From Elusimicrobiota bacterium (GTDB taxonomy: Bacteria > RUG730 > JBDRED01): a stretch of DNA of 64,000 bases. The stretch spans positions 14,902 to 78,901 of the forward strand of contig JBDRED010000021.1 in assembly GCA_043820025.1 (NCBI GenBank), written 5' to 3'. Below, in pieces: positions 6,560 to 52,293 of the stretch. A model generated the notes under the pieces. That model worked only from the letters and a program-made list of their open reading frames with translations. It was not told where the DNA came from and searched no databases. The position numbers and the translations under genes are program-made. The stretch's first letter is position 1; each line of letters opens with the position of its first letter.

Positions 6560-8659
6560 TTATACTATCTGCGAAAAATCCGCAATTCTCGAAAATGTGT
6601 TTGTAAGATGAGTTAACAAAACCAGCCTGTTATTCCTTACAGATTCATCCTTATCCATAATTAAGACATTGTCAAAGAAAGTATCCAGCGCAGGCTTTAA
6701 CTTCGCTAATAATTGAAGAAAAGAAACATATTTTTTCTTGCCTTGAAGTTTGTCATCAAGAACAACCTGCTGCAGGCTGTTCCATAAATTCTTTTCCTCC
6801 TGCATAGCAAATAAATTTTCATCTATTTTTTTGTCCGCAAAATTAAATCCTTTGTCCTTTGCCTGCCTGACAATATTATGCGCGCGTTTATATAGAGCAA
6901 TGAGCTGTTCAAAATCTTTGTCTTTTCTCATATCGTGAATAGCGCTCAACTTTAAATAATCGTCGTGAACAAGTATACCGGACTCTCTTTCGCTGATTGA
7001 ACGAACTTCGTCAACGCTAAACTGTTTATCTATCAGCCAATTTTCAAATCTTTTTTTATAAAAATCATTTAATGCGCTTACCGCTTCCTCTATACTTTCT
7101 TTTGAAAACTTATTTTCAAAAAGCGCTGAAACATTTTTTGCTAAATCAAAAAATGACAAATCCCATTTTTTATCCAAACATATTTCAAATACTCCATAAA
7201 ACTGGCGTCTCATGCCATAAGGGTCGTAAGAGCCTTTTGGCCTGTGTCCTGTAAGAAAGGTTGAGACTACATTATCAATCTTATCGGCTATACTGACTAT
7301 TGCAGACTCGTTTGACCGGGGCAATTTATCTCCCGCAGTTTTTGGCAGATAATTCTCCTCTATCGCGCTCGCTGTTAATTCGTCTTCGCCATTATCTTGA
7401 GCATAAACGCGCCCCATAACACCCTGCAATTCCGGAAATTCCTGAACCATTTCAGTTAAAAGATCTGTCTTTGCAAGCAAGGCAATACGGCTGATCCTGC
7501 TGTTATCCGCATCAATTTTTAGAATATTTACAAGCATCTCTGATATTTTTTGTATTCTATTTACCTTATCATAAACAGAACCCAGCTGTTCTTGATATAC
7601 AACTTTTTTTAAATCATCCACTCTATCAATAAGTTTTTTCTTTCTATCCTGCATATAAAAAAACTCCGCGTCCTTAAGCCTCGCGGTAAGAACCTTTTCA
7701 TAACCCTGACAAACTATTTTTTCATATTTTGTTCTTCCGTTTTTTACGCCGATAAAATGCGGCGTTAATTTTCCATCCTTTGTTTCAAGAGCAAAGAATT
7801 TCTGATGATGCTTTAATACAGTGACGATTACTTCTGCGGGAAGCTGCAGAAAACGTTTGTCAAACGAACCTAAAATAGTAAACGGATATTCGGTAAGAGC
7901 TGAAACCTCGTCTAGTAAATCCTCATGAATTATAGGAATGCCGTATTTTTTATTAATGCCTTTAAACCCGTTAATAACCATTTCCTTTCTCTTGTTCCGG
8001 TCAATAACAACGCTGTTTGCCAGCAATTTTTTATGATAATCATCTCTGTTTTTGACATTAATTTTCTTAGCCCTGAAACCGCTCATACCATATGTTATTT
8101 TGCCTGATTTTATTCCGGCGCATTCAAATGACAATGCCTTATTTCCAAACATACCTAAAAGCCATCTGACAGGCCGCGAAAATCTGGCCTTAGACTTATT
8201 CCAAACCATTGTTTTTGGAAAGTTAAGCGTTATTATAAACTCGTTAAATATCTTTGGCAGTATTTTTTCAGTTTTCTCGGATTTACCCACGATCTCAGCT
8301 GTTATATATTCGCCTTTTGACGTTTCTTTAAATTTTAAATCCTTTACCGCAACGCCGCATTTCTCAGCAAATCCTTTAAGCGCGTTTGTAGGCTTCCCAT
8401 TTTCGTCATACGCTATTCTTTTCGGCGGGCCAATGATTTCTTCCTTGGACACTCTTTGAGCCTCGTCTACATTAAGAGCTTCAATTACTATTCTGCACGG
8501 CGTTATAAAAACATTTATATCGTCATAAGTAATGCTGTTATTATCCATAATATTTTTAAAAAGTGATTTTGCGTTATCTCCGGCAGTCCGCTGAGCTGAA
8601 AGAGGAAGCTCCTCAACGCCTATTTCAAATATTAATTCTTTTTTCATATATTCTCCCAA
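6560..8659 (-). CDS. glyS: Glycyl-tRNA synthetase beta subunit
   Basis: MKKELIFEIGVEELPLSAQRT... typical GlyS N-terminus; ~695 aa; likely ATG at ~8647 preceded by GGGAGA. Confidence 0.9.
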   Translation of the reverse strand: MGEYMKKELIFEIGVEELPLSAQRTAGDNAKSLFKNIMDNNSITYDDINVFITPCRIVIEALNVDEAQRVSKEEIIGPPKRIAYDENGKPTNALKGFAEKCGVAVKDLKFKETSKGEYITAEIVGKSEKTEKILPKIFNEFIITLNFPKTMVWNKSKARFSRPVRWLLGMFGNKALSFECAGIKSGKITYGMSGFRAKKINVKNRDDYHKKLLANSVVIDRNKRKEMVINGFKGINKKYGIPIIHEDLLDEVSALTEYPFTILGSFDKRFLQLPAEVIVTVLKHHQKFFALETKDGKLTPHFIGVKNGRTKYEKIVCQGYEKVLTARLKDAEFFYMQDRKKKLIDRVDDLKKVVYQEQLGSVYDKVNRIQKISEMLVNILKIDADNSRISRIALLAKTDLLTEMVQEFPELQGVMGRVYAQDNGEDELTASAIEENYLPKTAGDKLPRSNESAIVSIADKIDNVVSTFLTGHRPKGSYDPYGMRRQFYGVFEICLDKKWDLSFFDLAKNVSALFENKFSKESIEEAVSALNDFYKKRFENWLIDKQFSVDEVRSISERESGILVHDDYLKLSAIHDMRKDKDFEQLIALYKRAHNIVRQAKDKGFNFADKKIDENLFAMQEEKNLWNSLQQVVLDDKLQGKKKYVSFLQLLAKLKPALDTFFDNVLIMDKDESVRNNRLVLLTHLTNTFSRIADFSQIV

Positions 8660-8764: not shown

Positions 8765-8800
8765 CCTCTCCCCTATGGGGAGAGGATTAAGGTGAGGGGG
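8765..8800 (+). repeat. REP-like 36-bp element copy A (core palindrome cctctcccc-tat-ggggagagg), preceded by polypyrimidine tract 8700..8764
   Basis: cctctcccctatggggagaggattaaggtgaggggg; a direct copy occurs at 9246..9281 and an inverted copy at 9168..9203. Confidence 0.8.
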
Positions 8801-9155
8801 CTTCATCTCTTCTTTTGAAAATAGCCCTCTCAATAACTTGACAAACACCTTCAATATTTTTCAAAATATCCCTATCACTAAAACGTAGAATCTCTATACC
8901 CTGATTATTTAATATATTCGTTCTCTTCGTATCATATATTATATTTTTTTCTTCATAGTGCTGACCGCCATCTGCTTCTATTGCTAATTTATATTTTGAA
9001 GAATAAAAATCTAATATGTACTTTTGGACCGGAACCTGCCTTTTAAATTTTACTCCTGATAATTGCCTATTTCGCAACACTCTCCAAAGCTTTTTCTCTG
9101 TATCTGTCTGCTTTTTTCTTAATGCACGACTTCTCTCGATATTTTTTCGTTTCAT
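8787..9155 (-). CDS. DUF559 (Vsr-like/restriction-endonuclease-fold) domain protein
   Basis: ALRKKQTDTEKKLWRVLRNRQLSGVKFKRQVPVQKYILDFYSSKYKLAIEADGGQHY...ILRFSDRDI matches the DUF559 pattern (LW..LR....G.KFRRQ.P...YI.DF.C....L.IE.DG..H). Confidence 0.85.
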   Translation of the reverse strand: MKRKNIERSRALRKKQTDTEKKLWRVLRNRQLSGVKFKRQVPVQKYILDFYSSKYKLAIEADGGQHYEEKNIIYDTKRTNILNNQGIEILRFSDRDILKNIEGVCQVIERAIFKRRDEAPSP

Positions 9156-9311: not shown

Positions 9312-10187
9312 TTACCTAACATACGCTTCTGCAACCTTTTTTGCCATATTACGAACGCGCGCGATAAAATGTGTGCGCTCAGTTACGCTTATCACTCCTC
9401 TTGCCTGAAGCATATTAAACAAGTGCGACGCTTTTAAAACATAATCATACGCAGGGCCTATAAGGTTTTTTTCAATCAGCCTCAATGCTTCTTTTTCAGA
9501 AGAATCAAACGATATTCTTAAAAATGCGGTATCAGCCTCTTCAAAATTATATTTTGAGAAATCTTTTTCATCTCTTAAATGAACATCGCCATAAGTAAGC
9601 GGATATTTTTTACCATCAATATTCTGCGTTGTCCATAAAATATCAAATACGCTGTCTTTATTCTGCCTATACATCGCTATTCGCTCAAGCCCATATGTAA
9701 TTTCAACAGTGATTGGATCCAGTTCAATGCCGCCCATCTGCTGAAAATATGTAAACTGCGTGATTTCCATGCCATCCAGCCATACCTCCCAGCCAAGCCC
9801 CCAGGCTCCAAGCGTAGGAGATTCCCAATCATCCTCAACAAACCTTACATCATGTTTTTTTAGGTCTATGCCTATACTCTCAAGGCTCTGCAAATACAAT
9901 GATTGAATATCCTTTGGCGCAGGTTTTATCACAACCTGATATTGATAATAATGCTGAAGCCTGTTTGGATTTTCTCCATATCTTCCGTCAGTAGGCCTGC
10001 GCGACGGTTCAACATAAGCCGCTGCCCACGGCGCAGGGCCCAAGCATCGAAAAAATGTGGCAGGATTAAATGTGCCTGCGCCCTTTTCAATGTCATACGG
10101 CTGCATTATTGCGCATCCTTTTTTCGCCCAGTATTTTTCTAAACTTAAAATCATATCTTGAAATGTCATAATTCTCCTTTTTATCAT
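9312..10187 (-). CDS. glyQ: Glycyl-tRNA synthetase alpha subunit
   Basis: [45 protein letters not shown]...[10 protein letters not shown] is a strong GlyQ match; real start probably MTFQD at ~10169. Confidence 0.9.
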
Positions 10188-17413: not shown

Positions 17414-17968
17414 TTATTCCTGAACGCCTTTAATAGATGTTCTTAAATAATCAAAGCCGGAAAGAATTGTTACCAGGCCTGTTAAATAATATAAATAAAT
17501 CAGATATTGTTCAATTGGAATGTATCCTTTTACTAGAATACATAGTACTGTAAGCATCTGCATAAATGTGGTAGATTTCCCAAGCGCGCTTGGACTTACC
17601 TTAGTTATGTTAAACACCAAATATAAAAAAAGCCACCCGTGAACTATCAAAATATCACGCATTAAAATTACTATAGTCAGCCACCACGGAATAACGCCTT
17701 TTATCGCGTAAATCATAAAAGCGCTTATCAAAAGAAGTTTATCTCCGGCAGGGTCAAGAAATGTGCCAAGCCTTGTCTTGCTTTTTGAAAGGCGCGCTAC
17801 TAATCCGTCAAGAGCGTCGCTTATCATGCACAAACTAAATATTCCAAGCGGGATATGTTTAACATTATAGACAACGGTTATAATAAAGGCCGGGACAAAG
17901 AGTATTCTTGCAAATGATATTTTATTCGGCAAGTTCATAATTTTACCTCTAAACCGCAAAACCACCAT
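17414..17968 (-). CDS. CDP-alcohol phosphatidyltransferase family protein (PgsA-like)
   Basis: DALDGLVARLSKSKTRLGTFLDPAGDKLL matches the D-x2-D-G-x2-AR...G-x3-D-x3-D motif; likely start MNLPNK at ~17938. Confidence 0.75.
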   Translation of the reverse strand: MVVLRFRGKIMNLPNKISFARILFVPAFIITVVYNVKHIPLGIFSLCMISDALDGLVARLSKSKTRLGTFLDPAGDKLLLISAFMIYAIKGVIPWWLTIVILMRDILIVHGWLFLYLVFNITKVSPSALGKSTTFMQMLTVLCILVKGYIPIEQYLIYLYYLTGLVTILSGFDYLRTSIKGVQE

Positions 17969-19728
17969 GCTCCGGGCATTGGAACTCCAAGTATTTCTTC
18001 ATAATATTCGCTAAATATATTTTTTCCCTTAACAAAAGCAGTTAAATCGCCAAAGTTTCTTGAAAACCTTACGTCAACATACCCGTATTCTTTGTAATTT
18101 ACCCTATCGTTATATGTGATTGTGAACGCGCTAAGAACATTATAAATCTTGGGCAGAGTAATATCAAATACTAAATTATTTCTAACATAATTAAGTCTGT
18201 ACTTTGAGACATAGTCATTTGCGACTGCGGCATATAAATCAATATAAATATAATTTAACTTAGTTTCACAGCTAAGCGCCTTTATGGTAGTATTAAATTC
18301 GAAACCTCTAACCCGGGCTAAATGGATATTACCCGCTATCCACTTATTATTTTTTAAGTAATAATCAATTACATCAGTTTCATCTCTGGCAAATATATTA
18401 GCCTCCCATATCAGTCCCAAATTATGAACAACGCCTGCCTCATATGTCCATGCTGTTTCGGGTTTTAAATCTAATGTGCCGACATTCGCAGGGCTTAAAT
18501 AATACCTGTCTGTAAAGCTCGGATAACTATGGCCTCTTGAAACAGACGCGCGCCATTTAAGCTCATCAGTCAGATCTCCGCCAAATCCCATATGCGGCAA
18601 AAGAATATTACCGTGCTGATCATTATACTCGTCACGTAGTCCGCACATAACCATTAGACTATTAAACTCTCCTTCATAACCGGCATAGCCTGCTGTGATG
18701 GTTTCTTGATATTCCCCGTTTATAGAGCTATCAAGATCATTCTGCGAAGCGCTGACATTCATACGCAGCGCGCCATTGTCAAGATCTCCGGATAGGCCTA
18801 TATCGCAGCCATAAGCGATTGATTCGGTTTCATTTATATATAATGCCGGATTATCGACAGTTAAAGTAAATTCATCATTATGTTCCTTAAAGAATATTTT
18901 AGGTATTAGCGTTGTTTTATTGTTTATGTAATGTTCTGACTGAATTGTTATAAAACTCTGCTGAAGTTTTTCATGAGAAGGATACGCGCCATAAAAACCG
19001 TTTGCGCCAAAATCTTTTTGATTATATCCCGCAATAAGGCTGAGTTTTGCGTTATTCAAAGAATGCCTGCTTATAAGCGAAACCCCATTCTCGTCAGACT
19101 GTGTTTCCCGTCTATACCCGGATGATTTTATCTTATTAAATGAAATAATATTATCAGTTCCGTTATAAGTAAGCGGTATTGATGCGTTTACTTCATACAG
19201 ATCATGACTGCCGAACATAATTCCTGCATTGATTTTTTTTTGACTCTCTTTTGTAATAATATTAATAACTCCGGCATACGCTCCGCTCCCATACAGCGAT
19301 GATGACGGCCCATAAACAACCTCAATTCTTTCAATATCATTTATCTGAACAGGGATATCCAAATTATGATGGCCTGTCTGTTTTTCATTTATGCTTATTC
19401 CATCAACCATAATAAGCACATGTTCAAAATAACTGCCTCTAACGCTTATATCCGAACTAATGTTTAGAGCGCCGCGCCTGTTAAAAGTTATAGATGGAAT
19501 TAAACTAAAAGCTTCATCAATTGTTGTGACTAAGTTTTTCTTTAATTCTTCGCCGGATATTACAAATGTCTTCCGGGTGGCTGCGACCGGAGCTGAATGG
19601 AACAGACTGCTTCGCACAGTCATTGTCGCAGAATACACCGAAAAATCTGCAGAATAAACAAAGCGGGATAGAATAATTACTAAAAACATTCCTATCCCAA
19701 ATTTTCTCATAATTACCTCCAAACACAT
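17935..19728 (-). CDS. TonB-dependent outer-membrane receptor (BtuB-size)
   Basis: Signal peptide then plug-domain-like region (VISGEELKK..., IERIEVVYGPSSSLYGSGAYAGVINIITK); ~590 aa beta-barrel-like remainder. Confidence 0.75.
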   Translation of the reverse strand: MCLEVIMRKFGIGMFLVIILSRFVYSADFSVYSATMTVRSSLFHSAPVAATRKTFVISGEELKKNLVTTIDEAFSLIPSITFNRRGALNISSDISVRGSYFEHVLIMVDGISINEKQTGHHNLDIPVQINDIERIEVVYGPSSSLYGSGAYAGVINIITKESQKKINAGIMFGSHDLYEVNASIPLTYNGTDNIISFNKIKSSGYRRETQSDENGVSLISRHSLNNAKLSLIAGYNQKDFGANGFYGAYPSHEKLQQSFITIQSEHYINNKTTLIPKIFFKEHNDEFTLTVDNPALYINETESIAYGCDIGLSGDLDNGALRMNVSASQNDLDSSINGEYQETITAGYAGYEGEFNSLMVMCGLRDEYNDQHGNILLPHMGFGGDLTDELKWRASVSRGHSYPSFTDRYYLSPANVGTLDLKPETAWTYEAGVVHNLGLIWEANIFARDETDVIDYYLKNNKWIAGNIHLARVRGFEFNTTIKALSCETKLNYIYIDLYAAVANDYVSKYRLNYVRNNLVFDITLPKIYNVLSAFTITYNDRVNYKEYGYVDVRFSRNFGDLTAFVKGKNIFSEYYEEILGVPMPGAWWFCGLEVKL

Positions 19729-20807: not shown

Positions 20808-20880
20808 TGCCAGGACCCAGAATTGAACTGGGGACGCAGGGTTTTTCAGACCCTCGCTCTACCAACTGAGCTATCCCGGC
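20808..20880 (-). tRNA. tRNA-Phe (anticodon GAA), 73 nt, CCA not encoded
   Basis: Revcomp folds as GCCGGGA/TCCTGGC acceptor, GCTC/GAGC D-stem, AGGGT-CTGAAAA-ACCCT anticodon arm (GAA), CCCAG-TTCAATT-CTGGG T-arm, discriminator A. Confidence 0.9.
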
Positions 20881-22059: not shown

Positions 22060-22740
22060 TTAAATTTCATCCAAAGAAACACAGTCTAAATTTGATTTAA
22101 AGTAATTAACCGCAAGTTTTCCCGTACAATGCAAAGGCGTAAAATATTTAACATTCATTTTTTTTAGTTTATCTATAACATTTAATATTTCTTGCGCCTG
22201 CGAACCTTTAAGATGGAATCCGCCAATAACGGCATATATATCGCCGGCAAATTGTTGTTTTGCTTTTTCTATTATTTCCACTATACCGGGATGCGCGCAG
22301 CCAGTGATTAAAATTAATCCTTTTTCAGATTTAATACAAAGAGACTGTTCGTATAATATCCCGTCTTTTGACAATTCGCCTAGAGTAAATATGTTTCTTA
22401 TTATACAGCGCGCTGTGTCTATTTCTTGAAGTATTACGCCATAAGATTTTATTTTTTCTTTTATAGCATTATCAGTATCCAGACATACATAAACTGTAAC
22501 ATTTTTATTAAAAGCCAATATATCCCATAAACCGGACATATGATCCCAATGATCATGCGATATAATGATGTGTTTTATCCGCGAAATATCAACGTTCAGT
22601 TTTTTGATATTTTTCAAAAAAACCCGCGGTTTGCCGAATGTATCAAACAACACATCATCGTCTATTAAAAAGGCTAATCCCCAATTTTTTACAAACCTGT
22701 CCCATTTCGTAGACCCGCATGCTATAAGTTTTATGTTCAC
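22060..22740 (-). CDS. MBL-fold metallo-hydrolase
   Basis: IISHDHWDHMSG matches HxHxDH; later GCAHPG and PLHCTG. Confidence 0.7.
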   Translation of the reverse strand: MNIKLIACGSTKWDRFVKNWGLAFLIDDDVLFDTFGKPRVFLKNIKKLNVDISRIKHIIISHDHWDHMSGLWDILAFNKNVTVYVCLDTDNAIKEKIKSYGVILQEIDTARCIIRNIFTLGELSKDGILYEQSLCIKSEKGLILITGCAHPGIVEIIEKAKQQFAGDIYAVIGGFHLKGSQAQEILNVIDKLKKMNVKYFTPLHCTGKLAVNYFKSNLDCVSLDEI

Positions 22741-22790
22741 GTCAACTCCAAAAATTAGTTTTAAGCTCTATTCTATTTAAGTAAGTTTTA

Positions 22791-23627
22791 TTAACTTAAC
22801 GCTTGAACCTTTGCGCTTATAATTCTATTTACTATTTCCAAAAACGCTTTTTTTGACTCTGTATGTTTTTCAAATAACACAAACGGTTTTCCTGTATCGC
22901 CTGAATGAACAATTTCTATCTCAAAAGGTATTTTTCCAAGGAAAGGCACGTGCAAATCATGCGCAGCCTTTTCTCCGCCGCCTTCTTTGAAAATAGCTGT
23001 TTTTTCTCCGCAATGCGGACATACAAACCCGCTCATATTTTCAATCACTCCTGCAACCGGTATGCCCAGTTTTTTCGCAAACAATACGCTTTTTCGTGAA
23101 TCAAGTATTGCAACATCCTGAGGAGTAGTCACAATAACAACTCCTGCAGCATTTGGTATGAGCTGGCATACGCTCAATGTCTCATCGCCGGTACCCGGAG
23201 GACAATCGATAATCAAATAATCCAATTCTCCCCAATTAACCTCTGTCAAAAATTGTTTTATAACATTTCCTTTAATCGGCCCTCTCCAAATAATAGGATC
23301 ATCGGGATGCACGCCCATTAAGGCTAAGCTCATTGCTTTTAAATGCGGGGTAACCTCAATAGTATCTATTCCAAACTCAGATTGAACGACGCAATCTTTT
23401 TCAATACCGAGCATTTTTGCAATATTCGGTCCATGTATATCAACATCCAAGATACCAACTTTATTATTTTGAAGAGAAAGCGCGTATGCAAGATTAACAG
23501 CAACAGATGTTTTTCCAACTCCGCCTTTTCCGCTCATAACAATAAAGACATTCTTTATTTTTGACATTTTAAATTTCAATAGCATTTCTTTATCTTGTGT
23601 TTGATCTTGACTGCAACCTGTATTCAT
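22791..23627 (-). CDS. Mrp/NBP35/ApbC-family Fe-S cluster carrier ATPase
   Basis: VMSGKGGVGKTSVAVNLAYAL deviant Walker A; C-terminal CPHCGEKTAIF. Confidence 0.85.
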   Translation of the reverse strand: MNTGCSQDQTQDKEMLLKFKMSKIKNVFIVMSGKGGVGKTSVAVNLAYALSLQNNKVGILDVDIHGPNIAKMLGIEKDCVVQSEFGIDTIEVTPHLKAMSLALMGVHPDDPIIWRGPIKGNVIKQFLTEVNWGELDYLIIDCPPGTGDETLSVCQLIPNAAGVVIVTTPQDVAILDSRKSVLFAKKLGIPVAGVIENMSGFVCPHCGEKTAIFKEGGGEKAAHDLHVPFLGKIPFEIEIVHSGDTGKPFVLFEKHTESKKAFLEIVNRIISAKVQALS

Positions 23628-23717
23628 AAAATTCTCCTTGTTAAGATTTTAAAAGATAATCCGCAATCTCTCTATTAAATGTATTCACGGAAAACATAGA
23701 ACAATGCAGATGATTTT

Positions 23718-24578
23718 CTAGCAGATTTTACAAATAATTTTATCCCAAATATTTCTTATTTCCTGCGAAACCTTCCCGTCTGTATATTCTACAAGAGGCA
23801 TACACACCACAATTGATTTACTTACAACGCTGTCAAATGATATTAGTCCTAAAATTTCTATGTTATTTTCAGCGCATAATGATTTGACTTTCTCGCAATT
23901 CTCCAAATTCAAATCAAATTTGTTTATAACGACCTTTGTAGTAATTTTGAAATGTTTTGCGAGTTCCATTACCCTTTGCATATCGTGAATACCCGAAACA
24001 GTCGGTTCAGTGATAATCACAGCCAAATCGATTCCCGCAAGCGATGCCATAACCGGACAGCCAATACCCGGAGGCCCGTCAATAATCACATAATCCGCTT
24101 TTTTTGCTTCTGCCAATTTTTTTGCTTCGTCACGAATTTTTGCAACGAGCTTGCCCGAATTTTCCTCTGCAATCCCAAGTTTTGCATGCACAAAATCTCC
24201 ATACTTGGTTTCTGAAATAAACCATTCGCCCGATATATTATCGCTCATTTTTATTGCGTCAACCGGACATATAATGGAGCAAAAACCACAGCCTTCACAG
24301 GAAATAGGGTCTAAATTAAAATTATCGTCAAACGCCTCAAATCTGCAGACAGTCTTGCATTGTCCGCATTTAATACATAAACTCTCATCAATAACCGCTG
24401 ATTTACCGCCAACAAACTTATTTCGCTCTAGAATTTTTGGTTTCAGTAAAATATATAAGTCTGCGGCGTCTACATCGCAGTCAACCATAATCTTATTCTT
24501 TGCCAATACAGCAAAGGAAGCAGTAAGAACTGTCTTACCTGTTCCTCCTTTTCCGCTAATAACCAATATTTGTTTCAT
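23718..24578 (-). CDS. MinD/ParA-superfamily P-loop ATPase with inserted 2x[4Fe-4S] ferredoxin domain (COG1149-type)
   Basis: ISGKGGTGKT P-loop; CIKCGQCKTVCRFEA and CEGCGFCSIICPVDAI ferredoxin motifs. Confidence 0.8.
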   Translation of the reverse strand: MKQILVISGKGGTGKTVLTASFAVLAKNKIMVDCDVDAADLYILLKPKILERNKFVGGKSAVIDESLCIKCGQCKTVCRFEAFDDNFNLDPISCEGCGFCSIICPVDAIKMSDNISGEWFISETKYGDFVHAKLGIAEENSGKLVAKIRDEAKKLAEAKKADYVIIDGPPGIGCPVMASLAGIDLAVIITEPTVSGIHDMQRVMELAKHFKITTKVVINKFDLNLENCEKVKSLCAENNIEILGLISFDSVVSKSIVVCMPLVEYTDGKVSQEIRNIWDKIICKIC

Positions 24579-24618
24579 TAGATCTTACCTCTGCCGCATA
24601 CAAAAACGTCTACCTTTG

Positions 24619-25485
24619 TCATACAAACCTCCTGGAAATTTCATTAAATAATTCTTGGAAATCTTTTTTATATTCCGGCAATGCCTGAAGAATAGAAATA
24701 CCTTTTGAATATGCATAAGCTATTTTTTTATCAAATGGAATTTTCATTAGAACATCAATATTTTCATTTTTACAATATTTTTCTGTTTTCATATCGCCTA
24801 TATCTGACCGATTTATCACTACGCCAAATGGTATTTTTAATTTTCTTATAACTTCTACAGCCAGCATTAAATCATTAAGGCCAAACGGCGTAGGCTCTGT
24901 GACTAAAACGCAAAAGCCGCTTTCTTTAACTGCCGCAATAACAGGGCATGAAGTCCCGGGAGGCGCGTCTATAATCACTGTCCGGCGAGGATTAATAAAT
25001 CTCTTAACCTGCTTTATAAGCGCCGGAGACATTATCTCGCCAATTGACAATCTTCCTGATACAAACTTTATTCCATCCCTATTGCCAATTTCTATGCTCC
25101 CGATTTTTTTCCCAATTTCTTTTATAGCTTTTTTGGGGCAAATATACGCGCATGCGCCACAGCTATGACAAAGATGCGGAAAGGTTAATACATTGCCTTT
25201 TTTATCATTATTTCCCGGTATAACAGCTATCGCATTGTATGCGCATACTGTTCTGCATTTGCCGCAATAATTACATAATGTTTCATCAATATACGGCGCA
25301 AGAACTACCGCATCAATCTTCTCGTCAATTATAGGCTTTAAAAATAAATGCGCATTTGGTTCTTCAACATCACAATCAAGAAACCAGGCGTTATTTAAAG
25401 CTAATGCGAGATTTACAGCTATTGTTGTTTTACCTGTTCCGCCTTTCCCGCTTGCGATTGATATAATACGGTTATTTATGTCCAT
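24619..25485 (-). CDS. Second MinD-type ATPase with ferredoxin insert (paralogue)
   Basis: ASGKGGTGKT; CNYCGKCRTVCAYNAI and CHSCGACAYICPKKAI. Confidence 0.8.
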   Translation of the reverse strand: MDINNRIISIASGKGGTGKTTIAVNLALALNNAWFLDCDVEEPNAHLFLKPIIDEKIDAVVLAPYIDETLCNYCGKCRTVCAYNAIAVIPGNNDKKGNVLTFPHLCHSCGACAYICPKKAIKEIGKKIGSIEIGNRDGIKFVSGRLSIGEIMSPALIKQVKRFINPRRTVIIDAPPGTSCPVIAAVKESGFCVLVTEPTPFGLNDLMLAVEVIRKLKIPFGVVINRSDIGDMKTEKYCKNENIDVLMKIPFDKKIAYAYSKGISILQALPEYKKDFQELFNEISRRFV

Positions 25486-25517
25486 GCTATTAACACTTCC
25501 TGTTTATCGTCATATCC

Positions 25518-25850
25518 TTAATTCATTTTTTCAAGTTTGCCTGTTTTGTACTGTTCAATTACATTTTTTATACCGCCGCCATTTGATAAATATATTTCTA
25601 TGCCGGCTGTCTTGAGAGTATTATATGCATTCTGTCCAACCTTACCTGTTAGTACGGCCTTTACGCCGCTTGAAATAACCGACTGAGCAGATTGTATTCC
25701 GGCTCCGCCTGTAAGATTTACATTAGTATTTTCTACTGCCTTAAATTCGTTTGTATCAGTATCAAAAATTATAAAATACGCGCACCGTCCAAATCTCATA
25801 TCAAGATTTGATTCTAATGTTTTCCCTTCGGATGTAATACATATCTTCAT
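25518..25850 (-). CDS. NifX/NafY/NifB-C-terminal-like (dinitrogenase FeMo-cofactor-binding family) small protein
   Basis: 110 aa; RFGRCAYFIIFDTDT...GGAGIQSAQSVISSGVKAVLTGKVGQNA pattern of Nitro_FeMo-Co family. Confidence 0.7.
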   Translation of the reverse strand: MKICITSEGKTLESNLDMRFGRCAYFIIFDTDTNEFKAVENTNVNLTGGAGIQSAQSVISSGVKAVLTGKVGQNAYNTLKTAGIEIYLSNGGGIKNVIEQYKTGKLEKMN

Positions 25851-25865
25851 TATGATTCTCCTTTT

Positions 25866-26228
25866 TTATTGGCATTCGCCATGTTCTTTACATCCTTCTA
25901 TGCCTTTAAGGCTGTTTTTTAGAAGTAATTCAATGCCGTCTTTTGCAGAGCCGCTATATCCAAATATTTCTATGTTTGCCATTGCAAATTTTTGCTGCGC
26001 GCCCATGCCCATACCGCCTGCAATAACATGCGTTATGTTATGTTTTAATATCTCATCAACCGCGACACATCCTCCGCCTCCATGCGCGGCAGTATTTGGA
26101 ACAACCTTATTATTTTTTATTTTGCCGTCTTCAATATCTACAATTAAAAAATATTTACACTGTCCAAAATGCTGAGATACTTCGCTCAACAATCCTTGTT
26201 CATCGTCCAACGTTATTCCTATTCTCAT
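25866..26228 (-). CDS. Second NifX/NafY-like cofactor-binding protein
   Basis: 120 aa; HFGQCKYFLIVDIEDG...GGGGCVAVDEILKHNITHVIAGGMGMGA. Confidence 0.7.
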   Translation of the reverse strand: MRIGITLDDEQGLLSEVSQHFGQCKYFLIVDIEDGKIKNNKVVPNTAAHGGGGCVAVDEILKHNITHVIAGGMGMGAQQKFAMANIEIFGYSGSAKDGIELLLKNSLKGIEGCKEHGECQ

Positions 26229-26231
26229 AAA

Positions 26232-26519
26232 TTAGCTCTCCTTTTTTTTTAAAGAATTTATAGTTTGGTTGAGATTATCTAATTCTTGTTTTAGATATTC
26301 AGCGCGCGCAGTTAACGAATCTATATTATTATTTTGTTCGTTGTAACTTCGATTTCTAAAACTTCTATTCAATCCTCTGCCACAGCCTCTTCCAAAACAA
26401 AACAATTTTTCGGTAAAAGACTGCTTATTCTTTTCATCAACAATGCTCACGCAATTCCCCATTCCTTTTCCTGTCATTCGGCCTAATCCATTTGGGCCCG
26501 TTCCATCTAATCTCGGCAT
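26232..26519 (-). CDS. DUF5320-like protein (MPRxDGTGPxG N-terminus, coiled-coil C-terminus)
   Basis: MPRLDGTGPNGLGRMTGKGMGNC... then heptad-like tail; AGGAGG RBS. Confidence 0.6.
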   Translation of the reverse strand: MPRLDGTGPNGLGRMTGKGMGNCVSIVDEKNKQSFTEKLFCFGRGCGRGLNRSFRNRSYNEQNNNIDSLTARAEYLKQELDNLNQTINSLKKKES

Positions 26520-26543
26520 AATTTATACCTCCTTTTATAATAA

Positions 26544-26558
26544 TGGAAACCATTTTCA
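26544..26558. promoter_or_regulatory. Palindromic operator candidate TGGAAAccaTTTTCA (6-3-6, one mismatch) upstream of the DUF5320 gene
   Basis: Read in sequence; ~25 nt upstream of start, immediately 5' of RBS; near-identical to site at 27053..27067. Confidence 0.5.
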
Positions 26559-26578
26559 GTTTATAGGCAAAAAATATA

Positions 26579-27037
26579 TTACCTATTCCTGCATTCTGAA
26601 CAAACTCCGGAAAACTGTATCAAATGATTTTTAATTTCAAACTTATATTTCTTAGATAATCCTTTTTCTGTTTTTGTCAATAGTTCTACTTCTTCGTCGA
26701 TAAAATCCTTATAATCAATAATCCGTTTGCATTCTGTGCAGACTAAATGATGATGGTGATTTTTTCCATCTGCTGCATCAACTATTTCATACCGCGCTCT
26801 TCCATCCCCAAAATCAAATTTTTGCAGCATACCCATATTAGCCAATACATCTAATGTTCTATATACTGTTGTTAATCCTATAGATGAATATTTTTTATGT
26901 ACTTTTAAATATATTTCTTCAGCGCTTAAATGACCTTTGGTATTAGTCAGAACATCTAAGATTGCTTCTCTTCCTATAGTTATTCTATAACCGCATCCTC
27001 GAAATTTGCCGTGCCATTCATCTTTTCTACAAGACAT
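26579..27037 (-). CDS. Fur-family metal-responsive transcriptional regulator (Fur/Zur/PerR class) with Cys-rich N-terminal extension
   Basis: HLSAEEIYLKV...GLTTVYRTLDVL winged helix; HHHHLVCTECKRI and CSECRN metal-site motifs. Confidence 0.8.
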   Translation of the reverse strand: MSCRKDEWHGKFRGCGYRITIGREAILDVLTNTKGHLSAEEIYLKVHKKYSSIGLTTVYRTLDVLANMGMLQKFDFGDGRARYEIVDAADGKNHHHHLVCTECKRIIDYKDFIDEEVELLTKTEKGLSKKYKFEIKNHLIQFSGVCSECRNR

Positions 27038-27052
27038 TTTATATCTCCTTAA

Positions 27053-27067
27053 TGAAAACCATTTTCA
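27053..27067. promoter_or_regulatory. Perfect palindrome TGAAAAccaTTTTCA, 16 nt upstream of the Fur-family gene start (autoregulatory operator candidate)
   Basis: Read in sequence; sits just 5' of AAGGAG RBS. Confidence 0.5.
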
Positions 27068-27169
27068 ATAAGATACATTAATAAACTTTTTATGTCAATA
27101 GTAATATTGTAGATACTCTTTGGAAGTTTTAAAGGTTTAATGAGTAATTATAGATTGCGCCATATGCAC

Positions 27170-37754: not shown

Positions 37755-40598
37755 TTAGCTCTCAACTGCAAGCCCGTGAGCTCTAAGCGCATCCAGTATT
37801 TGATTAATTTTTCTACCTAATTCATTAAGCGCTGCATTCGTATTATCCACACGAGCTCCTGATAAACTTTGCTCGCCAACACTATAGCCGGTATTTGCAT
37901 CCGTTATCACAGGATGCGTGCTTCCAATTACTTGATATCCATTTATCCCAATATTACCGGCCACATCCAGTAAAAGAGTTGGAGTACTATCGCCAATGCC
38001 TACATTACCTGCCGAACTAATATAAAGAGCATTCGTCTTGCCGGAACTTGATAATCTCAAATCGCTTGCGCCCTGGAGCTCATCCAAGTTAAATATACTG
38101 CCTTCTGTTCCGTAAAATTTCATATCGCCGTTAACTTCTAATTTTTTGGTTGGATTAGTAATTCCTATACCCACATTACCTGTACCTGCCACATTGAGAG
38201 ATGTTTGACTGCCATACATACCAAGGCTTAAATAATTTGAAGCTGACCCTGCGCCTACATGGGTATAGCTTAGTTGAGCAGTATTGTTTGTTGAGTCAGC
38301 GTTACCCAAATTTATTCTTAACGCATGGCCTGCGCTCATAACCGGATCATATATTTTAGATATAACCGTTGTTACTGAATAATCTTTTTCTAAATCCAAC
38401 AAAGCGCCGGGCGCTGTTGTCCCTATTCCTACATTGCCTGTTCCCTTAATTGTAAACAATTCATTCCCTGCAGGCGCGTCTAAAAACGAAAATCTTCCGC
38501 TATTATTTCCAACATGAAGCCTAAATTGATTGGATTGTATTCCCATGCCATAAAATATACTCCCCCCGTCATATAATGCTAATTTGGTATTTCCAAAACT
38601 GTTATTTAAAGATACTAACGCCAGCGGATTTGTTGTGCCTATACCTATGTTTCCTCCCACCCTCTTTATTACAAATGTATCGTTTTGCCAGCCGCTGTCA
38701 TTTCTTGTTATATAAAAATCACCTGATAAATTTTTTCCAAACGCTACCTTATCAACGCCTGCTTCTTGAAAGGTGAATGTAGTATATCCTGCCGCTCCTG
38801 TATCATTAAAAACAATATCCGGTTCATCATTACTTAATGATAAAGGAGCAGTAGGATTCGTTGTGCCAATACCTACATAACCGGAGCCTGTTATTAAAAC
38901 ATTATTTGCCGCATTATTAATATATAACGGCGACTTTGTATTTATAGTCGAAATATATATATCAGAAAAATCTCCTATAGGCGCGTATACTGTCGTGCTT
39001 GACGCAATATCTCCTAACACATACAATTTCTCTGAAGGATCGTTTGTTCCCACTCCAATATTCCCGCCTGCTTTAATTACAAGTTTTGGGGTACCTTGAT
39101 ACCAATCTGAAAAATATAAATCAGCTGAAGAACCTGTAACTGTTGATGATGATGGTTGTATATATAATGCTCCGCCAGCTCCAACCATTCTTAATAATGA
39201 TGTTCCACTTCCAATAATAGTATCTCCTGCCACTTGTAATTTTCCAATCGGAGCAACTGTGCCTATGCCCACATTGCCGTCTGATTTTATCGTCATTTTT
39301 GTTGAGCCGTTTGTCCCGAAATATATACTATCAGTCCCTGTTGCATTTAGATGTACATAATTATCTAAAATAGTACTATTTGTGTTTAGGATTATATGTT
39401 TATCCGGGGTAGTTAATTGAAGCGCTGATAGGCCGGTTACCGAATAACTTGAATATCCTATTGTAGCTCTGTCTTGAAAAGCAAGATAAGCTGATTCTCC
39501 ATCAACACTTCCTGTTCTTATTCTTATATAGCCGCCATTACTCACTATAGCATCTAATTTCGCCAATGGATTTGTTGTGCCTATACCCACATTACCGCCG
39601 TCTTTAATAAATATTCCATTATTCCCATCATCATACAATTTTAATCCGTCTGCTCCTCTTGCATAAACGCCTGATGATTTCATTATACCTACTACTTCAA
39701 ATTTTTGCGCCGGAGCTATTGTTCCTATTCCTACATTCGCTATCGAGCCTGAAACTCTATCAATAAATAATGTGCCATCTGTTGCGGGATCTGTTGTAGT
39801 GCCGGATATTCCAAGACTCAATCCATAAACCCCCATTCCAATAAAACCTGATTCTGATCCGGTTCTGGTAAACACTATTTTTGGAATATCGCTTGCTCCA
39901 TTTGATGTTACTATTGATAAGGATTGCGTATCGGTTGCTGCTGAATGACCTATTTGCAATTTTGAACCCGGATTATTTGTGCCTATTCCGACAAATCCGC
40001 CATCTTCAATAAATATTCCGTTATTCCCATCATCTACTAAATATAATCCGGATGCGTCTACAGCTGAAACAGTGCTTGTTCTTATTTCATTTGCCTTTAT
40101 TTCTCCTACCACTTCAATCTCTTCTGCAGGCTGGGTTGTGCCTATTCCCATTCGCCCTGTCCCCACAAAATGGGCAATGCTTTTTCCATATAAACCTATT
40201 GTGTAATAATTGCTTGTAGAATTATCACCTACATATGAAAATGTATTTTCTACTGCATTATAGTTTGTTTCTTCTTTTCCAAATTGGAATCTTACAGCAT
40301 CGGTAACACTCATAACTGAATCAAACATTTTCAAGAGCTTACCACCGTCTATAACATTTTTATATATATACAAAGGCGATGAAGGGATTGACGTCCCCAC
40401 ACCTAGGTATCCTGCAAAATATGCGTCACCATTTGAGCTTATTGTTGATACAACAACCTCGCTCGAATCCTGTATACTTATACCGCTTGATCCGTCATTT
40501 GTTTCCAGCTTGATTGTTACGTCTGCAGCTGCATATAGGCATGTTAGAAGAGTCCCGCTGATAAATATATATACAAAAGTATTTCTTAAAATTTGCAT
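37755..40598 (-). CDS. Large secreted repeat protein with tail-fibre-like G(N/Y)VGIGTTNP...KL.V repeats
   Basis: Signal peptide (MQILRNTFVYIFISGTLLTCLYAAA); more than 10 copies of GNVGIGTTNP / GFVGIGTNNP / GYVGIGTTNP-type motifs across 947 aa. Confidence 0.7.
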   Translation of the reverse strand: MQILRNTFVYIFISGTLLTCLYAAADVTIKLETNDGSSGISIQDSSEVVVSTISSNGDAYFAGYLGVGTSIPSSPLYIYKNVIDGGKLLKMFDSVMSVTDAVRFQFGKEETNYNAVENTFSYVGDNSTSNYYTIGLYGKSIAHFVGTGRMGIGTTQPAEEIEVVGEIKANEIRTSTVSAVDASGLYLVDDGNNGIFIEDGGFVGIGTNNPGSKLQIGHSAATDTQSLSIVTSNGASDIPKIVFTRTGSESGFIGMGVYGLSLGISGTTTDPATDGTLFIDRVSGSIANVGIGTIAPAQKFEVVGIMKSSGVYARGADGLKLYDDGNNGIFIKDGGNVGIGTTNPLAKLDAIVSNGGYIRIRTGSVDGESAYLAFQDRATIGYSSYSVTGLSALQLTTPDKHIILNTNSTILDNYVHLNATGTDSIYFGTNGSTKMTIKSDGNVGIGTVAPIGKLQVAGDTIIGSGTSLLRMVGAGGALYIQPSSSTVTGSSADLYFSDWYQGTPKLVIKAGGNIGVGTNDPSEKLYVLGDIASSTTVYAPIGDFSDIYISTINTKSPLYINNAANNVLITGSGYVGIGTTNPTAPLSLSNDEPDIVFNDTGAAGYTTFTFQEAGVDKVAFGKNLSGDFYITRNDSGWQNDTFVIKRVGGNIGIGTTNPLALVSLNNSFGNTKLALYDGGSIFYGMGIQSNQFRLHVGNNSGRFSFLDAPAGNELFTIKGTGNVGIGTTAPGALLDLEKDYSVTTVISKIYDPVMSAGHALRINLGNADSTNNTAQLSYTHVGAGSASNYLSLGMYGSQTSLNVAGTGNVGIGITNPTKKLEVNGDMKFYGTEGSIFNLDELQGASDLRLSSSGKTNALYISSAGNVGIGDSTPTLLLDVAGNIGINGYQVIGSTHPVITDANTGYSVGEQSLSGARVDNTNAALNELGRKINQILDALRAHGLAVES

Positions 40599-45140: not shown

Positions 45141-45617
45141 ATGTCCAATTTTAATCCGAAACTAAGCAAACATGAAAAAAACGGCAAATCAATGTTTGTC
45201 TGTGATCAAACCAGGACACAGCTTTTGCCAAGACTTCAAGAAATTCAAATCAAACAAGGATACATTTCAGACAGGGATATGCAGGAACTTGCTGATGAGC
45301 TCGGACTTCATCCTGTGGAAGTTTACTCTATTGTAACCTTTTACTCATTTCTTTCAATAAAACCTAAAAGCCGCCACATTATTCGCGTCAGTAACTGCAT
45401 CTCCTGCAAGATGGCCGGAAGTGAAATCATTTTAAAGGAATTTGAAAATGAATTAGGCATTAAGACCGGCAAAACATCGCAAGATAATATCACACTTGAA
45501 TTGACAAGCTGTATTGGAATGTGCGACCAAGCGCCTGCTCTTATAGCCGATGATGTTGTGTATAGCAGTGTAACTCGAGAAACCGTAAAAAAAATAGTGC
45601 AAAATTTAAGAAAATAA
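45141..45617 (+). CDS. NuoE/HndA-like [2Fe-2S] thioredoxin-fold subunit of bifurcating-type hydrogenase
   Basis: CISCKMAGSE...LELTSCIGMCDQAPALIADDVVY Cys pattern of NuoE family. Confidence 0.8.
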   Translation: MSNFNPKLSKHEKNGKSMFVCDQTRTQLLPRLQEIQIKQGYISDRDMQELADELGLHPVEVYSIVTFYSFLSIKPKSRHIIRVSNCISCKMAGSEIILKEFENELGIKTGKTSQDNITLELTSCIGMCDQAPALIADDVVYSSVTRETVKKIVQNLRK

Positions 45618-45627
45618 GGAGAACTAA

Positions 45628-51621: not shown

Positions 51622-52293
51622 TTATTTTATTCCTTCTTTGATTTGATTTTGCGCGTTAACAAAATAAATTACATTTTCGAGCTCTAACTCTAAATTAACA
51701 TTATTAACAACCGCTCCTATAGGAACATTCAGATTAATCGGAGCAAAATTAAGAATACCTTTAACCCCTGCTTTAATTATTCTATCAGCAATACTCTGAG
51801 CAACTTCATGAGGCACAGCAAGAATCGCCAGTCTTACATCTTCATTTTTTATTATAGCCTCTAATTCCTCCATTGGCTTAATAACCATATTTCCCATTCC
51901 GTTATTCTTGCCTGGATTAATATCAAAGGCAGCGGCAATTTCTATACCCTCATTTTCAAACCCGCTGTAATTCATAAGCGCTGTTCCAATATTTCCAACA
52001 CCTATAACAATCACCTTCTGCACTACATTCTTTCCAAGTATCTTATTTAAATTTTCAATAAGCTCCTCAATAATATATCCACCCTTCTTATTGCCGGTAA
52101 TACCAAATACTGAAAAATCCTTTCTTACCTGTACAGGAGAAATCCCTAAAGAATCCCCTAAGTTATCAGAATATACCTTCACAAATCCAATATCTTTTAA
52201 TCTATTTAAAGCATTCTTGTAACCGGATAATCTCATTATTACATTTTTATTATTTGTCATTTTATTGTTCCTTTTTGGTACATATACTTGCAA
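51622..52293 (-). CDS. rex: Redox-sensing transcriptional repressor Rex
   Basis: N-terminal winged helix (RLSGYKNALNRLKDIGFVKVYSDNLGDSLGISPVQVRKDFSVFG) and Rossmann VIVIGVGNIGTAL; probable start MTNNKN at ~52260 after AAGGAA. Confidence 0.8.
   Translation of the reverse strand: MQVYVPKRNNKMTNNKNVIMRLSGYKNALNRLKDIGFVKVYSDNLGDSLGISPVQVRKDFSVFGITGNKKGGYIIEELIENLNKILGKNVVQKVIVIGVGNIGTALMNYSGFENEGIEIAAAFDINPGKNNGMGNMVIKPMEELEAIIKNEDVRLAILAVPHEVAQSIADRIIKAGVKGILNFAPINLNVPIGAVVNNVNLELELENVIYFVNAQNQIKEGIK

Follow-up and report, generated by a model that had tools for sequence, protein, structure and literature searches.

A Fur-headed orp gene cluster variant from an Elusimicrobiota bacterium and its likely role in iron-sulfur handling

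Introduction

The orp (ORange Protein complex) gene cluster has been studied in Desulfovibrio vulgaris Hildenborough since 2011 (PMC6345978, PMC8359166, PMC3897727). Its products include Orp3 and Orp4, which bear two [4Fe-4S] ferredoxin motifs each, the single-domain Di-Nase proteins Orp5 and Orp8, the latter being the orange protein, which bears a Mo-Cu-S cluster, and Orp9 (MrpORP), a fusion of an Mrp/NBP35 domain with a Di-Nase domain (PMC6345978, PMC8359166, PMC4641369). The genes are arranged in two divergent operons, orp3-4-5 and orp7-8-9, under the control of sigma-54 and the redox-sensing activator OrpR (PMC6345978, PMC8359166, PMC4641369). In vitro, MrpORP transfers Fe-S clusters to Orp3 and Orp4 (PMC6345978). 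About ten years after the first description, the physiological role of the Orp proteins was still termed 'unclear' by the authors (PMC8359166). Here we describe a variant of this cluster, headed by a gene for a Fur-family regulator, in a 64,000-nucleotide stretch of DNA (contig JBDRED010000021.1, positions 14,902 to 78,901; hereafter the window, with coordinates counted from its first letter) from the metagenome-assembled genome (MAG) 'Elusimicrobiota bacterium'.

A second described system that resembles part of this locus is IssA, the thioferrate store of Pyrococcus furiosus, in which an IPR003731 domain is combined with a cationic C-terminal tail rich in Trp, Gly and Arg (PMC5524996).

Results

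Eight co-oriented genes form an orp-type cluster

The cluster comprises eight open reading frames (ORFs) at 22060-27037, all on the minus strand, in the following 5' to 3' order:

26579-27037, minus strand: Fur-family regulator, 152 aa (Pfam FUR PF01475, 110.6 bits)
26232-26519, minus strand: DUF5320 protein, 95 aa (Pfam PF17253, 66.3 bits)
25866-26228, minus strand: NifX-like protein A, 120 aa (Pfam Nitro_FeMo-Co, 70.2 bits)
25518-25850, minus strand: NifX-like protein B, 110 aa, ORP/Orp8 type (Pfam Nitro_FeMo-Co, 85.9 bits)
24619-25485, minus strand: MinD-type ATPase paralogue A, 288 aa, Orp3/Orp4 type (CbiA/ParA P-loop with Fer4 insert)
23718-24578, minus strand: MinD-type ATPase paralogue B, 286 aa, Orp3/Orp4 type (CbiA/ParA P-loop with Fer4 insert)
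22791-23627, minus strand: Mrp/NBP35 Fe-S carrier ATPase, 278 aa (PF10609, 317.5 bits)
22060-22740, minus strand: metallo-beta-lactamase (MBL)-fold protein, 226 aa, with an HDHWDH motif (Pfam Lactamase_B)

The Pfam matches that define each protein are all above the gathering score and confirm the domain content given in an initial annotation of the window, made from the sequence alone, which had also described the eight genes correctly as co-oriented and tightly spaced. From fur to the MBL gene the intergenic gaps are 59, 3, 15, 32, 40, 90 and 50 nt, and a Shine-Dalgarno-like sequence lies ahead of all eight start codons. Given this spacing and these ribosome-binding sites, the organisation is operon-like, and we regard the region as a tightly organised operon; a terminator scan gave nothing meaningful within or past it. 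The eight translations are identical to the consecutive proteins MFH1714972.1-MFH1714979.1 of the 'Elusimicrobiota bacterium' MAG at NCBI, which bear generic names only.

Protein by protein, the set resembles the Orp proteins. Each of the two MinD-type ATPases carries two [4Fe-4S] ferredoxin motifs, the feature of Orp3 and Orp4. NifX-like protein B matches the orange protein (ORP) structure of Desulfovibrio gigas (2WFB, E=1.5e-14) and thus shows the feature of a single-domain Di-Nase protein of the orange-protein type; further matches in the PDB are TM1290 (1RDU, E=5e-22) and MTH1175 (E=1.4e-17). NifX-like protein A has an HFGQC motif and a Cys/His-rich C-terminus, GCKEHGECQ, and its motifs HFGQC and CKEHGEC are similar, not identical, to published ones (PMC6345978). 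Both NifX-like proteins match the C-terminal part of the NCBIfam MrpORP model, protein A at model positions 275-358, and the type A domain is the one that is fused to Mrp in proteins of MrpORP architecture. The Mrp protein has the deviant Walker A motif SGKGGVGKTS and the C-terminal CPHC of the Mrp/NBP35 family. Its best NCBIfam model is MrpORP, with 352.7 bits over positions 1-252 of 365 (ApbC, 236 bits); this score stays below the MrpORP equivalog cutoff of 450 bits (NF041136), and a Di-Nase domain is absent from the protein, which we therefore take as the P-loop domain of MrpORP without its fused partner.

The link to the D. vulgaris orp genes was anchored via a locus of a Desulfobacteraceae MAG (L052), which encodes an enhancer-binding protein (EBP) with the OrpR-like PAS spacing C-x8-C-x3-C, a MinD-ferredoxin (MinD-Fd) pair and an Mrp+Di-Nase protein above the MrpORP equivalog cutoff (518.5 > 450 bits). 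When the window proteins were searched against this locus, in that direction, the best matches within it were the first MinD-Fd protein for MinD-Fd A (54% identity), the second for MinD-Fd B (49%), NifX-like B for NifX-like B (47%), the P-loop domain of MrpORP for the window Mrp (45%) and MrpORP's Di-Nase domain for NifX-like A (31%). The ATPase paralogues A and B thus each pair with their own type. These matches identify the window genes as a cluster of the orp type, with MrpORP divided between two separate genes. As judged from sequence, then, the gene set is a variant of a known system, in which one NifX-like protein corresponds to Orp8 (ORP) and the other putatively to an Orp5/MrpORP-type domain, and the DUF5320 protein is probably the counterpart of Orp7. 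The initial annotation had taken the set for one without assigned function; that it is the orp cluster, encoding the ORP complex, contradicts this in part.

With the D. vulgaris ORP complex the window cluster shares a pair of MinD-type ATPases, both with two [4Fe-4S] motifs, two Di-Nase proteins of one domain each (one of them ORP-like), a carrier of the Mrp/NBP35 family and, encoded ahead of these, a small protein (DUF5320 here, probably Orp7). The clustering of the genes and the restriction to anaerobes are further common points. It differs in that there is one co-directional operon instead of two divergent ones, Mrp with a separate NifX-like gene instead of the fused MrpORP, and a putative Fur-family repressor with a 7-1-7 operator instead of the sigma-54/IHF/OrpR activator system. 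An MBL-fold gene is added, and the host belongs to the Elusimicrobiota, not to the Desulfobacterota. A search for sigma-54 -24/-12 promoters found no match between 25275 and 27609, the window encodes no EBP, and the Fur-family gene takes the position of OrpR.

The gene set recurs across anaerobic bacteria and archaea

The A-type ATPase has at least 8000 database relatives, many of them 65-73% identical, in Omnitrophota, Nitrospirota, Endomicrobiia and others. A scan with one genome per species gave 80 loci, ranging from Omnitrophota to Bathyarchaeia and methanogens, which were annotated with hidden Markov models built from the window and two sister loci. For the 41 loci with at least 4 kb on each side, the families encoded within 6 kb on the same strand were:

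MinD-Fd A+B pair: 100% of the 41 loci
any NifX-like gene: 100%
Mrp: 63%
DUF5320: 54%
IscU-type NifU_N: 49%
uncharacterised radical SAM protein: 29%
MBL protein: 22% (9/41)

On these shares the ATPase pair and the NifX-like carriers form the core of the cluster, Mrp, DUF5320 and NifU are frequent members, and the MBL protein and the type of regulator are variable. The recurrence of the MinD-Fd pair with NifX-like genes in all well-flanked loci, from many phyla, bears out the view that the arrangement is not due to chance. Loci of Desulfobacterota-type MAGs commonly encode Mrp+NifX-A fusions and have sigma-54 EBP genes adjoining the cluster. In sister clusters, IscU-type NifU is a frequent neighbour, and FeoAB and an encapsulated-ferritin-like (EncFtn) gene are found less often. 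One sister cluster, in an Omnitrophica MAG (L001, 7127-11204), holds genes for an encapsulated-ferritin-like protein, a methyltransferase, DUF5981 and a 'methanogenesis marker 8' (DUF2099) homologue, which at 213.9 bits falls just short of the cutoff, and continues with IscU-type NifU, an MBL protein, FeoAB and a second Fur paralogue.

The MBL gene of the window is probably co-transcribed with the others, given its 50-nt gap, its Shine-Dalgarno sequence and the lack of a terminator. Homologues are present in 5 of 42 loci from a scan seeded by the Fur clade (see below), and the protein is an accessory, not a core, member of the cluster. Its matches in the PDB are 7DCK (E=5.5e-35), TM1679 and 2P4Z, whose PDB names give no function, and a literature search on these three structures found no functional description; a match to the di-iron ODP family is very weak.

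A Fur-family protein as the putative dedicated repressor

The window Fur has two CxxC pairs and an HHHH motif, and C100, C103, C146, C149 and H94-H97 are invariant. It scores below all NCBIfam equivalog cutoffs for Fur, PerR, Zur and Irr (133.6 bits for the Bacillus-type Fur, cutoff 220; 87.9 for PerR, cutoff 180). The head order FUR-DUF5320-NifX-NifX is common to the two sister loci, one from an Omnitrophica MAG and one from a Thermodesulfovibrionales MAG, which were reached through close relatives of the window ATPase. Their Fur proteins are 64-66% identical to that of the window, whereas other Fur and PerR proteins are 30-37% identical to it, and all three have the N-terminal motif WWHGKFRGCGYR in common; the clade-specific N-terminal motif reads WHGxFRGCGYR.

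The initial annotation had given this protein an unusual Cys-rich N-terminal extension, which is an overstatement. The N-terminus, MSCRKDEWHGKFRGCGYR, contains just two Cys among residues 1-15 and is no longer than that of Bacillus subtilis Fur; Cys3 is not conserved, and Cys15 is shared by 8 of 11 homologues from genomes and 47 of 61 from metagenomes. Many clade members do have a longer N-terminus, MPRG[ND][CG]xGxGWWHGKFRGCGYR, which at its beginning is similar to the DUF5320 N-terminus, MPGGDGTGPxGxGPMTGRGAGYC. In orp-linked Fur proteins of this kind the N-terminus (MPRRDGTGPQWWHGKFRGCGYR) has its first nine residues in common with the DUF5320 signature MPGGDGTGPxGxGPMTGRGxGxC; such proteins are encoded in L009 (106-600), L003 (629-1102) and many of the loci L085-L164, and the feature is absent from the window Fur. 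A common motif for partner binding, or an origin by recombination, may account for this resemblance.

A conserved operator, TGAAAATnATTTTCA, lies ahead of fur and of the next gene. Its cross-locus consensus is the 7-1-7 inverted repeat TGAAAAT-n-ATTTTCA, and in the window the two copies are placed just downstream of a promoter-like site each:

27070-27098, minus strand: promoter-like site P1, TTGACA-17-TATCTT, upstream of fur; 10/12 consensus positions, the best minus-strand match in the region
27053-27067, minus strand: operator 1, predicted 7-1-7 Fur-type box TGAAAATGGTTTTCA; 3 nt past the -10 hexamer of P1, ending 15 nt before the fur ATG
26573-26600, minus strand: weak promoter-like site P2, TTCAGA-16-TATATT, at the 3' end of fur; 9/12 consensus positions
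26544-26558, minus strand: operator 2, predicted 7-1-7 Fur-type box TGAAAATGGTTTCCA, in the gap that separates fur from the DUF5320 gene

The two boxes lie within a near-identical 16-mer (TGAAAATGGTTTTCAT, 27052-27067, and TGAAAATGGTTTCCAT, 26543-26558) that occurs twice in the window and nowhere else in it, with 0.34 matches expected by chance. The operator is similar to the Fur box of B. subtilis, TGATAATnATTATCA, and retains G2 and C14, which distinguish Fur boxes from PerR boxes; at position 4 it has A (TGAAAAT) where the B. subtilis Fur box has T (TGATAAT). When 1.21 Mb of fetched loci were scanned for the operator with up to two mismatches, at least 16 of the 29 sites lay at cluster heads.

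An independent test was provided by a metagenome scan seeded by the Fur clade alone. Among the 42 loci with at least 1.5 kb downstream of fur, a NifX-like gene comes next in 34 (81%), while DUF5320 is present in 32 and the A-type ATPase in 27. Operator-like boxes were found upstream of fur in 37 of 71 metagenome loci and downstream in 36 of 67, and 73 of the 96 operator-like sites in this sample fall in fur-flanking intergenic DNA, which makes up 5% of the sequence. Cluster-type Fur is encoded within 6 kb on the same strand in 10% of the 41 genome loci, and Fur-headed orp clusters occur in Elusimicrobiota, Omnitrophota, Nitrospirota, Clostridia, Syntrophia and MAGs labelled Planctomycetales and Puniceicoccaceae. 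The operator copies, the same operator in other phyla and the tight linkage of fur to the cluster together argue that proteins of this clade are dedicated, autoregulated repressors of the orp-type operon, acting with a presumed effector metal, and they uphold the proposal of the initial annotation that a Fur-family protein controls the genes.

With classical Fur, PerR and Zur this protein shares the FUR domain, the two CxxC pairs, the His-rich site, a 15-bp 7-1-7 repeat with G2/C14 and apparent autoregulation. It differs from them in its position below the equivalog cutoffs, in the N-terminal motif of its clade, (MPRGxGxG)WWHGxFRGCGYR, and in being genomically dedicated to one operon. Boxes of this type were also seen elsewhere. 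In a Leptospirales MAG (L063, 2694-3000) three Fur-type boxes, one of them perfect (TGAAAATCATTTTCA), precede DUF5320 with no adjacent fur, which suggests control in trans. In the Thermodesulfovibrionales locus a CGGC-domain gene directly adjoins the cluster-linked fur on its upstream side, and this gene too has a Fur-type box ahead of it (TGAAAATCATTATCA; L003, 94-108).

A strictly paired set of MinD-type ATPases with ferredoxin inserts

Conservation was assessed in 107 A-type and 99 B-type homologues of the ATPases. Both Walker A Lys residues and the eight ferredoxin Cys are invariant in the A-type (107/107) and the B-type (99/99) proteins. A ninth Cys, in the motif DxPPGxxC, is found in 107 of 107 A-type (Cys180) and 98 of 99 B-type (Cys174) proteins and lies seven residues past the Walker B Asp, the same spacing as between Asp125 and Cys132 in switch II of NifH. 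The AlphaFold model of paralogue A has a pLDDT of 85.1, with low confidence inside the ferredoxin insert; the neighbours of its predicted fold are archaeal MinD proteins, at the top, and ApbC, ATPase-type HypB, FleN, CooC1 and NifH (SIMIBI). Neither a PDB search nor a fold search found a solved structure with the ferredoxin insert. Paralogue B is paired with paralogue A in 41/41 loci, and this strict pairing suggests an A/B heterodimer. Taken together, these predicted features fit a nucleotide-switched device for electron transfer or cluster hand-over.

The deviant Walker A motif, the dimerising SIMIBI fold and a role in metal or cluster delivery are common to Mrp/ApbC/NBP35, ATPase-type HypB and CooC, from which the MinD-Fd paralogues differ by the inserted 2x[4Fe-4S] ferredoxin domain. 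The nitrogenase cofactor line (NifU, NifB, NifX/NafY, NifH) offers a similar parallel, with a scaffold or carrier, carriers of the NifX fold and a SIMIBI ATPase that bears Fe-S and has the same Cys spacing. The NifH clusters sit at the dimer interface, whereas those of the window ATPases would reside in the inserted ferredoxin domain; moreover, the window cluster lacks nifHDK, nifEN and nifB, and its type is widespread in non-diazotrophs.

NifX-like carriers and a tail-like DUF5320 protein

DUF5320 proteins have an N-terminal motif ending in Cys, a low-complexity region rich in Gly, Arg, Trp and Tyr, a stretch rich in Pro and Tyr, and a C-terminal coiled coil. In the window protein these appear as MPRxDGTGP...GxC at the N-terminus, a short GRG-rich stretch of cationic character and the coiled coil, and residues 1-60 have a pI of 10.2. 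Several genomes encode Nitro_FeMo-Co+DUF5320 fusion proteins in which both domains exceed the Pfam gathering score. A triple fusion of Nitro_FeMo-Co, DUF5320 and a 2x[4Fe-4S] ferredoxin, all three confirmed by Pfam, was observed in another locus (L055, 8392-9270). Literature searches on DUF5320, COG1149, COG1433 and DVU2107 found no functional description, and one on iron limitation of such clusters found nothing useful.

The composition of DUF5320 agrees with the published description of the IssA tail, a comparison made by description only (PMC5524996). The window NifX-like proteins (110 and 120 aa) have no tail themselves, and the tail-like module is present in trans, as DUF5320. The fusions and the tail-like composition lead us to propose that DUF5320 may work with the NifX-like carriers and supply the IssA tail in trans. 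In common with IssA there is thus a NifX-like IPR003731 domain with an associated cationic low-complexity region rich in Gly, Arg and aromatic residues, given by DUF5320 here and fused in other genomes. IssA differs in forming a homomeric particle, in having no ATPase partners and in being induced by abundant iron and sulfide, and the window DUF5320 is a separate polypeptide with a coiled coil.

Surroundings of the cluster

The cluster is flanked by housekeeping genes: upstream, judged from their translations, rluD-like, lgt, lspA and ileS, and dus, YtxH, a TonB-dependent receptor and aspS downstream. The TonB-dependent receptor gene (17935-19728, minus strand) lies 2.3 kb downstream of the operon and is not preceded by a Fur-type box. 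The sole Rfam match in the 64 kb is a tRNA at 20808-20880 (minus strand), with no riboswitch or small RNA in the region.

Further along the window a trimeric [FeFe]-hydrogenase set (HydC/B/A, 45141-48724) is encoded on the plus strand, and maturation and regulatory genes on the minus strand:

45141-45617, plus strand: NuoE-like subunit
45628-46833, plus strand: NuoF-like subunit
46787-48724, plus strand: HydA
49210-50262, minus strand: HydE
50237-51619, minus strand: HydG
51622-52293, minus strand: Rex-like regulator

The GC skew changes sign over 46-50 kb, where the plus-strand hydrogenase genes lie. The initial annotation had pointed out that HydF is missing near the hydrogenase genes and that the window holds no nitrogenase; both statements stand. 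HydA/B/C, HydE and HydG are present with no HydF among the scanned window ORFs, and nifHDK, nifEN and nifB were found neither among the Pfam-scanned window ORFs nor among the families recurrent in 160 related loci.

Three further observations concern other genes of the window. A 947-aa ORF (37755-40598, minus strand) matched no Pfam or NCBIfam model at the thresholds applied, and a 548-aa ORF (40791-42437) has only a partial Glu_synthase match. A DUF559/REase_MTES_1575 endonuclease-like gene (8787-9155, minus strand) is located between the genes for the alpha (9312-10187) and beta (6560-8659) chains of glycyl-tRNA synthetase.

Discussion

The cluster is an orp-type variant on one strand, with a split MrpORP, an appended MBL gene and a putatively dedicated Fur protein, and we consider it likely that it handles Fe-S (or heterometal-sulfide) units in strict anaerobes. 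Iron-sulfur handling is favoured by the Fur regulator and its operator, by the IscU-type NifU, FeoAB and EncFtn neighbours, and by the IssA-like Nitro_FeMo-Co+DUF5320 fusions. The general idea of metallocluster handling, put forward in the initial annotation, fits this evidence.

We propose the following mechanism. As sequence and comparative genomics suggest, the Fur-clade protein would bind the 7-1-7 operators, which would coincide in part with the start regions of two promoters, its own and that of the DUF5320 gene. Together with its co-repressor metal, most likely Fe2+, it would shut the operon off, and a shortage of iron or of Fe-S would derepress it. Mrp would carry a [4Fe-4S] cluster and load the ferredoxin inserts of both MinD-type ATPases, a step shown for the Desulfovibrio homologues. 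The ATPase core is envisaged as a nucleotide-dependent heterodimer of the two paralogues, with two [4Fe-4S] clusters in each and the invariant switch-II Cys placed as in NifH, which may couple ATP hydrolysis to electron transfer or to the hand-over of inorganic metal-sulfide species. The cargo would be metal-sulfide species held non-covalently by the NifX-like carriers, one of the ORP/Orp8 type and one of the Cys/His type, and the cationic Gly/Arg-rich DUF5320 would partner these carriers, so that together they would act like a split IssA. The net role, in strict anaerobes, would be to supply, salvage or traffic units of Fe-S (or heterometal sulfide).

Several points weigh against this interpretation. 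The GRG region of the window DUF5320 is only short. The Fur clade stays below every NCBIfam equivalog cutoff, and the metal it senses is a presumed one. P1 and P2 are consensus matches only, and the region contains about as many of these as chance would give. An IssA-like iron store would predict induction at high iron, not classical Fur repression. The sole phenotype in D. vulgaris is reportedly morphological, affecting cell division, and Orp7 is said to lie outside the purified complex. Finally, the cargo may be other than Fe-S, given that a Mo-Cu-S cluster is bound by proteins of the Orp8 type in vitro and in D. gigas.

A narrower version of the proposed Fe-S handling role is a two-component store, in which the NifX-like proteins and DUF5320 accumulate a thioferrate-like polymer that the ATPases and Mrp reduce and mobilise. 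The Nitro_FeMo-Co+DUF5320 fusions have an IssA-like architecture, DUF5320 shares with the IssA tail (PMC5524996) a cationic character and a high content of Gly, Arg and aromatic residues, and MTH1175, the structural model for an 'IssA-type protein' in the IssA paper, closely matches NifX-like B. Yet the window NifX-like proteins have no tails and the GRG region of DUF5320 is short, IssA particles are homomeric without partner proteins, and IssA is induced at abundant iron and sulfide, whereas operators placed over promoters suggest repression at high metal. We hold such a store to be rather unlikely; being contained in the broader Fe-S reading, its probability overlaps with that of the latter and is not to be added to it.

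Could the MinD-like ATPases instead place the septum or the pole, with the metal clusters serving only as redox or iron sensors? The ORP complex has been termed 'putatively involved in cell division', MrpORP is found at the cell pole, and Orp3 and Orp4 are said to bear a MinD-like C-terminal amphipathic helix (PMC6345978, PMC4641369); archaeal MinD proteins are also the top structural neighbours of the predicted ATPase fold. However, the recurrent neighbours are IscU-type NifU, Mrp, FeoAB, EncFtn and Fur, not division genes, no minC, minE or fts genes adjoin the cluster in the window, and metal-dependent control is what a Fur operator implies. An Fe-S defect could also produce the division phenotype indirectly, and the authors themselves call the role unclear (PMC8359166). 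A cell-division or positioning system is thus improbable in our judgement.

A third possibility is that the cluster handles heterometal (Mo/W-Cu) sulfides, making or detoxifying species of the thiomolybdate or thiotungstate type, as the Mo-Cu cluster of the D. gigas ORP might suggest. NifX-like B matches that protein (2WFB), Orp8-type proteins carry S2MoS2CuS2MoS2 (PMC6345978), and the radical SAM gene found in 29% of the loci is weakly similar to MoaA and to a tungsten-cofactor maturase. The latter match is far under the cutoff (62 vs 380 bits), however, mod, tup and moa genes and a Moco riboswitch are missing from the window cluster and its vicinity, and both the recurrent neighbours and the regulator are of the iron type. 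We see a slim chance for this alternative.

The last candidate, a HydF substitute or other helper in [FeFe]-hydrogenase H-cluster maturation, or else a remnant of nitrogenase cofactor assembly, is suggested by HydA, HydE and HydG in a window without HydF and by NifX-like domains beside a NifH-class fold, but is in our view close to negligible, since the cluster proteins have no GTPase domain (the three P-loop proteins are MinD/Mrp-type ATPases), at least 18 kb with housekeeping genes separate the cluster from the hyd genes, HydF may be encoded in another part of the MAG, and nifHDK, nifEN and nifB are missing from the window. The same cluster occurs in Bathyarchaeia, Methanophagales, MAGs of methanogen lineages (Methanohalophilus, Methanocellaceae) and many other lineages, and Bathyarchaeia, Methanophagales and methanogen lineages are not known for [FeFe]-hydrogenases; hyd and nif genes are not among its recurrent neighbours. 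On these two grounds the HydF-substitute and nitrogenase-cofactor roles are rejected, and with them the link to H-cluster supply that had been raised in the initial annotation; a nitrogenase-type cofactor role finds no nif genes in the window or among the recurrent neighbours.

The handling of Fe-S units by a Fur-controlled orp variant thus remains the reading that we prefer. Conservation of the ORP complex extends over a very broad spectrum of anaerobes, bacterial and archaeal. New here are the putatively dedicated Fur-family regulator with its conserved operator across many phyla, and the DUF5320-NifX fusions; both point to iron-sulfur handling, and the fusions give the first functional lead for DUF5320. 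It is conceivable, if unlikely, that the Fur-headed orp cluster is a system of strict anaerobes for ATP-driven Fe-S assembly or mobilisation induced by iron starvation, in which split-IssA carriers hold the cargo, the NifH-like MinD-ferredoxin heterodimer reduces it and hands it over, Mrp and IscU-type proteins pass it on, and the DUF5320-like N-terminal motif of Fur may allow this regulator to sense the state of the machinery. If true, this would be an Fe-S supply system distinct from ISC, SUF and NIF, and would explain the function of the ORP complex.

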